64,000 bases of DNA from a phage. A model generated the notes under the pieces. That model was given only the letters and a program-made list of their open reading frames with translations. It was not told where the DNA came from and did no database searches. Shown here one piece after another: positions 15,126 through 23,566 of this stretch. The position numbers were made by a program, and so were the translations under genes. The stretch is from the sequence record OZ335960.1. One strand, written 5' to 3'. Position 1 is the first letter of the stretch. Every line of letters starts with the position of its first letter.

Positions 15126-15809
15126 TTATCGTTTTGTTGGAAGGGAAAGAGGATCGCACTCTTCCTCTGACGGAGCATCTTCAAGACCCATAGCATATCG
15201 CAAAGCATACTTCATCATCAGGATGTCTTTCGCACAGTCATGAATAGAATCATGTGCAACGAATCCGTCTAAAGTTCCCTTTGGAAGAGGACATGTGGTC
15301 ATATCACGAACAAGCAGAAGTGCTTCAATTCTTGTACGGATATCACGCTGATTCCAGAATTTACAAGGTTCTAACTTAAACGTATCAAGCTCATTCTCGG
15401 AAACGCCGTTAAGACGTTGAATATCACGAATGAGATCAACTAAAATTGGAAAATCAAACGACATTCCACGACACCAGCCTTGAGATTTCCAAGGATCGAT
15501 ATTATGCGCATTGATGTAATCATTAAATTTTGCAATACCATCGATAGTGCTTACATCTTCATCTGATGGCGCAATATTTTTTCGAGCTTCAGGAGATTGA
15601 TTTTTCCACCATTCGATAGTGCTTTTAGTAAAAAGACGATGTCCTTTTTGGCTTTTTAAATCAAACTTGATTTTAATGCCGCGTGAAACTAATTCATCAA
15701 ATGTTTCAACTACTTCTGGATTAGGGTCAAAGGCAATAACAGCCAAATCAATAACAGCTGCCTTTTCACCGCTTCCCATTGTTTCAAAATCTATAATAAA
15801 ATCAAACAT
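15126..15809 (-). CDS. dexA: exonuclease A DexA
   Basis: 227 aa as T4 DexA; DEDD-type exonuclease N-terminal motif DFETMG. Confidence 0.8.
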   Translation of the reverse strand: MFDFIIDFETMGSGEKAAVIDLAVIAFDPNPEVVETFDELVSRGIKIKFDLKSQKGHRLFTKSTIEWWKNQSPEARKNIAPSDEDVSTIDGIAKFNDYINAHNIDPWKSQGWCRGMSFDFPILVDLIRDIQRLNGVSENELDTFKLEPCKFWNQRDIRTRIEALLLVRDMTTCPLPKGTLDGFVAHDSIHDCAKDILMMKYALRYAMGLEDAPSEEECDPLSLPTKR

Positions 15810-16084
15810 TAAATTTTCCTCGCTAAATCGCGAATTTGACCTACAGTATAATCTTGGATATAAACTTTATTAATGGGCTCATCAATAAATTTTGCCATAG
15901 ATTCAATATCTTTTTGTATCTCTTCAAGACTGTATACTATCTTTAAAGCTTTTTCGCGAATAGTAACATTATCAGGTCCTGGATTTTCTTGAATGACAGC
16001 TTTAACATTTGCCATAAGAGATTTAAACTGATGCAAACTTAATTCAATCATTAATAACCGCCTTATAAAGATGGCTAATTTCAC
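15809..16084 (-). CDS. hypothetical protein, 91 aa
   Basis: Six-frame ORF, translationally coupled. Confidence 0.45.
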   Translation of the reverse strand: MKLAIFIRRLLMIELSLHQFKSLMANVKAVIQENPGPDNVTIREKALKIVYSLEEIQKDIESMAKFIDEPINKVYIQDYTVGQIRDLARKI

Positions 16085-16304
16085 CTAAAACATAATCACT
16101 GATTGTGACAGTTTTCACTTCACCACAAAAGAATTCTAACGCAATCAAATCTCGTTCAATTTCTTCCAATTGAAGCATTAACTTGCCTGATTCAATTTTC
16201 ACGTTTTTGCGATTTTTACTATAAGCTATTTCATAAATTTCGCTCACTTTATCTTGAAGTAGATAAAACTGATCTTTAGTTATTTCCACGAATAGCTTCC
16301 TCAA
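16044..16304 (-). CDS. hypothetical protein, 86 aa
   Basis: Six-frame ORF. Confidence 0.4.
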   Translation of the reverse strand: MRKLFVEITKDQFYLLQDKVSEIYEIAYSKNRKNVKIESGKLMLQLEEIERDLIALEFFCGEVKTVTISDYVLGEISHLYKAVIND

Positions 16305-21139: not shown

Positions 21140-21343
21140 TCACGATTTATCCCCATAGATGTCTCTCATCAATTTAAGCGCTGAGCGTTCTAATTTCTTT
21201 TCTTTCTCAGCACTAATCATTGATTTCATCCATTCTTCTGATTCGTTCTGCATTTCTTTATTTGCTTGTTCAACCCAACCATCGTCAATATACATTGAGT
21301 TTGGTCTATTGAACCATTCAAGCATCTTCTTCAGAACTTTCAT
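21140..21343 (-). CDS. hypothetical protein, 67 aa
   Basis: Six-frame ORF. Confidence 0.4.
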
Positions 21344-21815
21344 TTGTTTTACCTAAAACAATAGTAGGAGCATCGTCAAATTTATGAATTTTTAGTAAAT
21401 TTGGATGTAAACTATTCCACACAGAAGAAATAAAGTATGATAAAGCATCTTCACTTGCAATTATAAATTTATTTCCTTTATCTATTTTCCAACTATATAC
21501 TGAATCATACGAATAAAAAGATAAAGGTTTATCATTATATTGTTCTGCGCTAACATTAATGTATTCTGATTTAGTAAATGCTTCAATTGCTCTAAACGGA
21601 ATATTTGGCACAGTTTCAATAATACCAATCTTTTTAAGTTTTATTTCAGCATCTTCTGGAACTGGCATTGAAACGAAATTTTCTACGAGATACATTGGGT
21701 CACAATAACCCTTATCAATCATTACTGCTACGGTAATTGGAACGTCTTTAGCAAACGACAAACTATTACTGCTAATATACATTTCAAACAAAATCGCTTC
21801 CATAATTTTCCTCAA
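21318..21815 (-). CDS. hypothetical protein, 165 aa
   Basis: Six-frame ORF. Confidence 0.5.
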
Positions 21816-22150
21816 TCACAAGATGTAGATGAACAACTAGAATCACAAGAACTTCCACATGAATCGCCCGTCCATACATGAATAGGAACATTAGTGTCAT
21901 ATGAATCAGAACTAGACTGTGCATTCTGTGTATTAGATGATGTAGGTGTTGACCAGCGCCAAGGATTTTTATAATATTCCTGGGCTTCTTCATAAGTCAT
22001 AGTAACTGCTTCTACTGTTCCATCTCCCATATAAACATATTCAACTACAGTTAAAGGAAGGTAGTCATTTGAAATAGGAACTACACCTTCTCCGGGAGTT
22101 GTAGAGAAAAAATCCGTAAAGAAACTTTTAAACCAATTAAAGATAAACAT
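21812..22150 (-). CDS. hypothetical protein with Cys/Ser-rich C-terminal tail, 112 aa
   Basis: C-terminus [18 protein letters not shown]. Confidence 0.5.
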
Positions 22151-22362
22151 TACAAAAAGCCTCTTTGAAATTCGACTCTTTGAAATCCACCCCAGTCAGT
22201 GTATCGCATTTCAGCATTGAACTCGACTGAACCATCTGCATGCATCATGAATGAATGCGTGACGATATCACAATCCCAGCTTTTCATACCCCATTTATCA
22301 GAGATAGCTTTATCAAGAACCTTCTGGAGGTCTTCATTTGGTTTAATCCAGCGATTTAACAT
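22150..22362 (-). CDS. hypothetical protein, 70 aa
   Basis: Six-frame ORF downstream of promoter 22387-22420. Confidence 0.5.
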   Translation of the reverse strand: MLNRWIKPNEDLQKVLDKAISDKWGMKSWDCDIVTHSFMMHADGSVEFNAEMRYTDWGGFQRVEFQRGFL

Positions 22363-22386: not shown

Positions 22387-22420
22387 CTATTATACCATAC
22401 TCATTTTGGAAAGTAAACCG
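22387..22420 (-). promoter_or_regulatory. early promoter (-35 GTTTAC, 18 nt, -10 TATAAT)
   Basis: Minus strand GTTTACtttccaaaatgagtatggTATAAT. Confidence 0.6.
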
Positions 22421-22426
22421 GTAAAA

Positions 22427-22451
22427 TGAAAAAGGACTCCCGAAGGAGTCC
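22427..22451 (-). terminator. UUCG-loop terminator after soc
   Basis: GGACUCCUUCGGGAGUCC plus U-run on minus strand. Confidence 0.6.
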
Positions 22452-22457
22452 TTGAAA

Positions 22458-22703: not shown

Positions 22704-22775
22704 GTAATTCTCCTTTTATTTAAATTACATGACTATTTATAATAAATTCTCACAGCTTTTAAGCTGTCGTTTATA

Positions 22776-23365: not shown

Positions 23366-23566
23366 ATGGTACAAAAATTAATGGCACTTGTTAATGCCAT
23401 AAAAGGTAATAAAAGACGTATAGCTTTTACTATTTCTGCTATGGTAGGAATTTTACTTTGGAATTTTATTTTATCACCAATTGCTATTGCTCATGGCGTT
23501 AATATTCCAGTAATTACTCTTGATACATTCGTAGATTTAGCATTTGCTTTAGTTGGGTTAATTTAA
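23366..23566 (+). CDS. small membrane protein, 66 aa, plus strand
   Basis: Strong SD AAGGAGG 4 nt before ATG; two hydrophobic segments; intergenic between 56 and 61. Confidence 0.4.
   Translation: MVQKLMALVNAIKGNKRRIAFTISAMVGILLWNFILSPIAIAHGVNIPVITLDTFVDLAFALVGLI

Follow-up and report, generated by a model that had tools for sequence, protein, structure and literature searches.

The cysteine- and serine-rich tail of Mrh.1, a small early protein of T4-like phages: strong conservation and a possible role in metal ligation

What maintains a run of alternating cysteine and serine residues at the very end of a small phage protein? The question is raised by a 112-amino-acid open reading frame (ORF) in a 64,000-nucleotide stretch of phage DNA (sequence record OZ335960.1), hereafter called the window. 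The ORF, mrh.1, occupies positions 21812-22150, from an ATG start to a TGA stop (included), and is encoded by the minus strand, a detail unstated in the first-pass annotation of this DNA. That annotation had reported a Cys/Ser-rich C-terminal tail and suggested that it could be metal-binding or heavily modified. The tail is real: the last 20 residues hold four Cys, eight Ser and three Asp, with the cysteines spaced C-x3-C-x3-C-x4-C. We report here that it is under strong purifying selection, and we tentatively propose that it could supply ligands for a divalent metal.

The window ORF is the ortholog of T4 Mrh.1 (UniProt P20706) in another Tequatrovirus isolate. The source genome is of the T4 type; the 1.5 kb around mrh.1 are 97.9% identical to Shigella phage Sfk20 and find matches in 505 phage records. 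Compared with T4 Mrh.1, the window protein shows no substantive difference: it shares about 95-96% identity with the cluster that contains the T4-type Mrh.1 proteins, is of equal length, sits in the same place between mrh.2 and mrh, and has an identical layout of the four tail cysteines. It matched the Pfam family DUF7206 (PF23836) with 97.2 bits, residues 3-112 falling on model positions 1-107 (gathering cut-off, 25.6 bits), as did all 28 aligned relatives, and it matched phrog_2031 (E 4e-33), a PHROG of unknown function. On every criterion tested, namely Pfam score, genomic position and family motifs, the protein belongs to DUF7206, and all of the motifs are present in it (the WLKxLF helix, PGEGVVPI, YMGDGxxE and the C-x(4-10)-C-D end). 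In related phages the depositors labelled the protein Mrh.1 or 'uncharacterized 12.6 kDa protein in mrh-soc intergenic region'.

Both the mrh.1 gene and its family are already catalogued and hence already known. The first-pass annotation had called the tail unusual for a phage early protein; this holds for the composition, but not for the gene, which is listed as Mrh.1 and DUF7206 and has relatives in more than 760 phage records. A full-text search of the literature found mrh.1 and DUF7206 in no main text, the information being in supplements only. Three statements were not found in the searchable literature: that the invariant C...C-D-COOH tail is a hallmark of the family, that only two of the tail cysteines are ancestral, and that the constraint on the tail is stronger than that on most of Mrh.1.

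A tail under strong purifying selection

The composition of the tail stands out from that of the window, where Cys accounts for 1.39% and Ser for 6.6% of the 18,099 residues encoded by ORFs of at least 80 amino acids. Among those ORFs, at least four Cys within 20 residues occur at two places only, the Mrh.1 tail and a CxxxCxxC segment that we take to be the radical S-adenosylmethionine (SAM) motif of NrdG; for at least four Cys and at least eight Ser to fall within 20 residues, the expected number of occurrences in 18,099 residues is about 9e-6. The tail is no repeat at the nucleotide level, its Ser codons being a mix of TCA, TCT and AGT.

A search of 5.8 billion clustered proteins retrieved 11 relatives, one of them a 515-member cluster named Mrh.1, and an exhaustive profile search of 1.84 billion representatives retrieved 27 clusters. 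With a distant member as query, tblastn detected relatives in 762 phage records, from phages of Escherichia, Shigella, Klebsiella, Yersinia, Citrobacter, Salmonella, Enterobacter, Serratia, Erwinia and Edwardsiella; phages of Serratia and Cronobacter carried a branch more remote still. No cellular homolog was found in a profile scan of 185,579 species genomes. The Mrh.1 family is restricted to virulent T4-like phages of Enterobacterales. When the C-terminal 46 residues of an RB69-type homolog were used as query, the tail was found on no other protein among the 5.8 billion, in a search whose word index excludes low-complexity sequence.

Because tblastn masks the tail as low complexity, so that its alignments end at residue 93, conservation of the tail was read from fetched loci. 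The C...C[D/N] end was kept in 38 of 39 of them, and the exception runs off its contig. In all 28 cluster representatives a Cys is the penultimate residue and another lies 4-10 residues upstream; the stretch between them is made up almost entirely of S, G, D, P and T, and each of the two Cys is normally followed by an Asp. Members outside the T4-type branch have exactly two tail Cys, and this residue is nearly absent from the rest of the family proteins. In an alignment of 31 sequences with 27% mean column identity, F11, Y40, G42, G44, E47 and the penultimate Cys were invariant, and the S-C-D-S block of the tail and the terminal Asp were among the nearly invariant positions. Across genera the family cysteines stay invariant at 30-50% overall identity. 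Conservation in homologs, the check that the first-pass annotation had proposed, was thus confirmed, and the tail ranks among the most conserved parts of the family.

The ratio of nonsynonymous to synonymous polymorphism (pN/pS) in the tail was 0.08 in T4-type and 0.02 in RB69-type phages, and codon alignments of the relatives showed many synonymous changes at Ser, Cys and Asp with the residues unchanged. The Mrh.1 tail is under strong purifying selection. In T4-type phages the mrh.1 stop is a TGA lying over the Shine-Dalgarno sequence of mrh, whereas in RB69-type phages it is a TAA that abuts or overlaps the srh start (TAATG); since both the stop codon and the downstream gene differ between the two types, the ...SCD end is selected at the protein level. 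A cause at the DNA level, such as a tandem repeat, a downstream ribosome-binding site or an alternative frame, was considered and rejected on the mixed Ser codons, the synonymous changes and these differing arrangements.

The four cysteines of the window protein are not of the same age. C106 and C111 form the ancestral pair, whereas C98 and C102 align with a Ser (TCT) and a Tyr (TAT) of the relatives; Ser-to-Cys and Tyr-to-Cys changes (TCT/TAT to TGT) in the T4 lineage therefore represent a gain of thiols.

Absence or frameshift of the tail, the outcome against which the first-pass annotation had asked the relatives to be checked, was confined to single database entries: the intact form of Mrh.1 is represented by 515 clustered sequences, and the frameshifted or truncated forms P0005 and P0006 by one sequence each. 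A 69-amino-acid ORF in another frame (21784-21993, minus strand) overlaps the 3' half of mrh.1. The 141-amino-acid P0006, encoded on a contig of 175 kb, is an Mrh.1 that passes into this frame after residue ~60; rather than an alternative product, it most probably represents a pseudogene or a sequencing error. A 164-amino-acid form of Mrh.1, present in 17 clustered sequences (L023 547-1041, phage G2540-3; P0003; L036), is a mosaic in which N-terminal and tail modules of the T4 type surround a middle of the RB69 type (...IIRQPEKAGNVGAGALPLNSKKLKEHLD...IDTAPII...), an indication that modules have recombined between genera while the tail was retained.

Possible roles of the tail

An AlphaFold2 model of Mrh.1, run with the 28-sequence alignment, had an overall predicted local distance difference test (pLDDT) score of 59, that is, low confidence; linker and tail scored below 50 and lacked secondary structure. 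Mrh.1 is accordingly predicted to be a small modular protein, mostly intrinsically disordered.

The reading that we favour, while holding it as tentative, is that the tail would be a flexible set of thiolate and carboxylate ligands for a divalent metal, held by Mrh.1 itself or by a partner, with the N-terminal modules providing the targeting. Two Cys, two Asp and the free C-terminal carboxylate would act as ligands, and the metal might be, for example, Zn or Fe. Mrh.1 could bind it, perhaps between the two chains of a dimer, or the metal could sit in a partner protein, of the host or of the phage, as its metal centre; recruitment or targeting of that partner would fall to the N-terminal helix and the core of Mrh.1 together with its PGEGVVPI motif. 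The conserved Cys-Asp dipeptides and the Cys gains of the T4 lineage are compatible with metal binding, and in that lineage the device may have been strengthened by turning a Ser and a Tyr position into two extra Cys. Participation of the free carboxylate is suggested by the Asp that follows each Cys and by the end of the protein right after Cys-Asp, the distance from the last Cys to the free C-terminus being invariant. Known flexible metal-trafficking and metallothionein-type peptides are disordered, as the Mrh.1 tail is predicted to be.

Several points weigh against this proposal. AlphaFold2 cannot show metal binding. Two Cys per chain at a variable spacing of 4-10 residues do not make a canonical structural Zn site (CxxC), and the Cys content of the tail is far below that of metallothioneins. 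A composite metal site with Mrh.2 was considered and found unsupported, Mrh.2 having one invariant His (His36) and no conserved Cys. A redox dithiol, or a C-terminal motif that does nothing but dock, would account for the features of the tail about as well. T4 Mrh.1 was not detected by tryptic mass spectrometry, in contrast to Mrh.2, Mrh and Srh (supplement of PMC9697503); this is probably due to the lengths of its predicted tryptic peptides (8, 53, 4 and 47 residues). Finally, the 'Semi-Fit' call given to mrh.1 in a transcriptome-wide CRISPRi-ART knock-down screen of T4 (score 0.79, five guides), although a point in favour of the proposal, is marginal in its statistic (0.069); in that screen mrh.2, mrh, srh and soc, which lie beside it, were classed 'Not Fit' (PMC11879866 supplements). 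Only four other T4 genes of wholly unknown function were Semi-Fit, and the authors put this group forward as inroads to new biology (PMC11879866).

It is possible, though we consider it rather unlikely, that the tail, rich in Ser, Asp and Cys and ending in a free S-C-D-COOH, is instead a short linear docking motif that fits a pocket of a host or phage protein, much like the C-terminal tails of SSB or EEVD-COOH motifs, the cysteines being plain contacts. On this view Mrh.1 would serve host take-over or anti-defence as a disordered adaptor or inhibitor. The invariable end of the protein one residue after a Cys and the disordered architecture with several separately conserved short motifs agree with this explanation, as does the grouping of mrh.1 with the early host-takeover genes mod, mrh and srh. 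Moreover, the N-terminal motif of Mrh.1 is weakly like that of the Srh family (hhalign probability 43%, E 2.4e-4, over 35 columns), and the authors of the CRISPRi-ART screen suggested that the unknown Semi-Fit genes may be defence inhibitors (PMC11879866). A contact motif, however, would not obviously tolerate a spacing of 4-10 residues between the Cys-Asp units, nor would it obviously drive the gain of Cys from Ser and Tyr.

A disulfide loop would tolerate the variable spacing. Close to the C-terminus, in a tail predicted to be disordered and with 4-10 small flexible residues between them, the two invariant Cys might cycle between dithiol and disulfide. As a redox-active element the tail would be a substrate, decoy or shuttle for systems of the thioredoxin/glutaredoxin type, a possibility that we regard as doubtful. 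In its favour, T4 encodes a thioredoxin/glutaredoxin of its own, with which it reshapes deoxynucleotide and redox metabolism, and the tail of E. coli NrdA reads CESGAC, with an acidic residue after the first Cys. On the other hand, searches of Pfam, PDB chains and NCBIfam showed no sequence similarity to any redox protein, and an Asp beside both cysteines should raise the pKa of the thiols, which is unfavourable for thiol-disulfide exchange. Neither the invariant position of the last Cys nor the extra Cys of T4 is required by a redox function, and mrh.1 has no genomic linkage to nrd or trx genes, its neighbours being soc, mrh.2, mrh, srh and mod.

A bolder form of the metal-ligand proposal, which we think unlikely, would make the terminal Cys-Asp-COOH and the upstream Cys-Asp a leashed thiol/carboxylate 'warhead' directed at the metal of a host metalloenzyme or of an Fe-S- or Zn-dependent defence protein; with the same reservation, the tail could be a host-modified peptide. 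As a warhead, the tail would be brought to its target by the N-terminal helix and the core, thread into it and coordinate the catalytic metal, which recalls a cysteine switch or captopril-type inhibition. If either were true, Mrh.1 would represent a novel kind of phage inhibitor, small and disordered, and its mild fitness effect in T4 would be explained.

Modification can also be considered on its own, the Ser/Cys-rich C-terminus being a core-like substrate of a host enzyme or of an unrecognised phage enzyme and the N-terminal part a leader or recognition element. Lanthionine or thioether rings, azoles, phosphorylation and ADP-ribosylation are the candidate modifications. The Ser/Cys/Asp composition does resemble the cores of ribosomally synthesized and post-translationally modified peptides (RiPPs), one family member weakly matched the putative bacteriocin family PF25184 (E 9e-4), and the sole NCBIfam match was that of the tail to the FxLD lanthipeptide precursor TIGR04363 (E 0.096). 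This last match reflects composition only, as its 12.7 bits are far below the 30-bit cut-off. No LanB/C/M, LanKC, YcaO or radical-SAM maturase was adjacent to the gene in 10 contexts, where it is surrounded by small T4 early ORFs (Soc, dCTPase, Mrh, Srh and the Mod ADP-ribosyltransferases), and the 185,579 species genomes contained no cellular homologs or biosynthetic clusters. The ADP-ribosyltransferase genes modA and modB do lie nearby, 1.5-3 kb downstream of mrh.1, but ModA and ModB are arginine-specific and the Mrh.1 tail has no Arg. Altogether we judge this explanation decidedly unlikely.

That the tail has no specific function, being a low-complexity extension that the phage tolerates or a side effect of overlapping signals or of another frame, is very improbable: its predicted disorder, the overlapping 69-amino-acid ORF and the rare forms P0005 and P0006 would agree with it, but it is contradicted by the tail pN/pS of 0.02-0.08, by Cys invariant across genera, by a peptide end that stays constant as the downstream arrangement differs between lineages, and by an intact cluster of 515 sequences against single frameshifted entries.

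T4 is the best-studied virulent phage, and about half of its genes, mrh.1 included, are without a known function. The most constrained feature of this family is a two-Cys, Asp-flanked C-terminal tail on a disordered protein, which offers a concrete and cheap experimental handle. Should the tail prove to act against a host factor through its metal or through redox chemistry, a new mechanism would be added to phage host take-over or anti-defence; otherwise, Mrh.1 would be one more conserved accessory protein of T4. The locus is an ordinary member of a known family, yet its motif is sharply defined and open to testing, and a mild fitness effect has been reported for the gene.

Protein modules and gene neighbourhood

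The modules of Mrh.1 and the signals around its gene are listed in Table 1.

Table 1. Coordinates of the Mrh.1 modules and of neighbouring features in the window
Feature	Positions	Strand	Description
T4-early-type sigma-70 promoter	22389..22417	-	GTTTACT...17 nt...TG-GTATAAT, upstream of mrh.2/mrh.1
Intrinsic terminator-like hairpin	22432..22453	-	after soc; separates soc from the mrh.2-mrh.1 unit
mrh.2	22150..22362	-	70 amino acids; profile matches to Pfam PF26878 (Phage_T4_Y01J) and phrog_1873
N-terminal aromatic/amphipathic helix of Mrh.1	22106..22150	-	motif M-I-x-W-L-K-x-L-F; AlphaFold2 helix, residues 3-15
PGEGVVPI motif	22073..22096	-	seen in three alignments; P19 and P25 nearly invariant
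Structured core	21950..22051	-	beta-hairpin with EYVYMGDG(T/M)xE motif, then helix; AlphaFold2 and alignment
S/T/N/Q-rich disordered linker	21875..21949	-	pLDDT <50 for residues 72-97; length and sequence vary widely
Cys/Ser/Asp tail	21815..21874	-	C106 and C111 family-wide; C98 and C102 T4-lineage-specific
Shine-Dalgarno GAGG of mrh	21810..21813	-	overlaps mrh.1 TGA; mrh ATG at 21803; sequence TGTGATTGAGGAAAATTATG

The window Mrh.1 is acidic, with an isoelectric point of about 4.05. Its core of approximately 35 residues is the sole region predicted with confidence (pLDDT 78-85); it comprises strands 34-40 and 46-52, which form the hairpin 34-52, and a helix at 53-67, and it contains the invariant residues Y40, G42, G44 and E47. 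In other genera longer charged, helical or hydrophobic inserts occur between core and tail, the tail being kept in all. A Foldseek search of BFVD with the AlphaFold2 model returned family members only, and the family profile gave a single chance match among PDB chain sequences, to a capsid protein (E 0.022).

In the N-terminal helix, K8 and F11 are nearly invariant or invariant in the alignments. The N-terminal motif as a whole (M-I-x-W-L-K-x-L-F...PGEG) resembles the N-terminus of Srh-like proteins of 61-67 amino acids (MKPLSWLKDWLDRPG...), the ORFs compared being 21140-21343 in the window and their counterparts in four relatives (L009 4340-4534; L012 4333-4533; L025 2068-2268; L027 2056-2244). 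The Mrh.1 homolog P0026 begins MKMNPLPWIKSWFE, like the Srh-like ORF of Edwardsiella phage PEi26, and a loose likeness extends to Mrh.2 (MLNRWIKPN). The likeness between Mrh.1 and Srh may reflect a shared targeting helix or an old duplication.

On the minus strand of the window the genes are arranged in the order gp61 primase, gp56 dCTPase, soc, mrh.2, mrh.1, mrh, srh ... modB, modA. The order soc, mrh.2 (PF26878), mrh.1 within the gene 56-modA early region of Tevenvirinae is found also in distant contigs. The TAA stop of mrh.2 overlaps the ATG of mrh.1 (TAATG), an overlap of stop and start that recurs in distant relatives, and for this reason the two genes are probably translationally coupled. 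The first-pass annotation had placed the ORF among the phage early proteins, an assignment supported by the early-type promoter upstream of the coupled mrh.2-mrh.1 pair and by the RNA class 'early' given to T4 mrh.1 (supplement of PMC9697503). The promoter scan scored 10 of 12 matches plus an extended -10 TG (GTTTAC-17 nt-TGGTATAAT), and in position this promoter would correspond to the T4 early promoter named Pe15.0 (PMC6024815). The hairpin found by scanning after soc consists of a 9-bp stem (AAGGACTCC/GGAGTCCTT) followed by a T run, and a terminator is annotated at the matching place in phages e11/2 and G2540-3.

The neighbour Mrh.2 was modelled by AlphaFold2 with a pLDDT of 89.8 as a helix and a three-stranded antiparallel sheet, for which no significant PDB match was found (best E 0.13). 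In this protein MLNRWIKPN and HSFMM are invariant, and DGSVEFNAE(I/M)R is largely conserved.

The content of the interval between gene 56 and soc varies among relatives. Only a short spacer (22704-22775) is present in the window; in T4 the interval (15606-16280) contains the homing endonuclease gene segF, in phage ZN18 an extra ORF of 66 amino acids (L002 3127-3327), and in CF1 three small ORFs. A hydrophobic ORF of 66 amino acids (MVQKLMALVNAIKGNKRRIAFTISAMVGILLWNFILSPIAIAHGVNIPVITLDTFVDLAFALVGLI) is located at 23366-23566 on the plus strand, between gp56 and gp61, in an early region otherwise encoded by the minus strand; it is a hypothetical protein in phage W143 and has counterparts of 65-66 amino acids in distant contigs, where it is likewise on the opposite strand relative to its neighbours. 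In Yersinia phage ZN18 (NC_054945; L002 526-1344), the RefSeq annotation gives the small T4 ORFs modA.2-modA.4 the name 'molybdenum ABC transporter, periplasmic molybdenum-binding protein ModA', plainly an error carried over from the modA prefix of the gene names.

Comparison with known systems

With the precursors of lanthipeptides and other RiPPs, Mrh.1 shares a Ser/Cys-rich C-terminal segment that follows a longer conserved N-terminal part; it matches no precursor model above its cut-off, however, and has no co-located maturase. Redox-active Cys pairs at the C-terminus are known from the large subunit of class Ia ribonucleotide reductase, from MsrA and from MerA. Mrh.1 has in common with the alpha subunit of class Ia ribonucleotide reductase a Cys pair in a flexible C-terminal tail, a resemblance only: it is a tiny disordered protein and not an enzyme, shows no homology to that subunit, has a different and variable spacing of the pair and lacks linkage to nrd genes. 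Zinc ribbons and zinc knuckles differ from Mrh.1 in that the latter contains no CxxC, has a Cys spacing of 4-10 residues and a tail pLDDT below 50, and it is not a member of either class.

Nor is Mrh.1 a metallothionein, as it has no CxC, CC or CxxC and only four Cys in 112 residues, of which its relatives keep two; in addition, its tail is appended to a 90-residue protein without Cys, and there is no sequence homology. Nevertheless, like metallothioneins and metal-trafficking peptides, among them fungal Cu-metallothionein and the DCxxC site of ZntA, the Mrh.1 tail is short, disordered by prediction and rich in Cys, Ser, Gly and Asp, with a carboxylate placed beside the thiolate.

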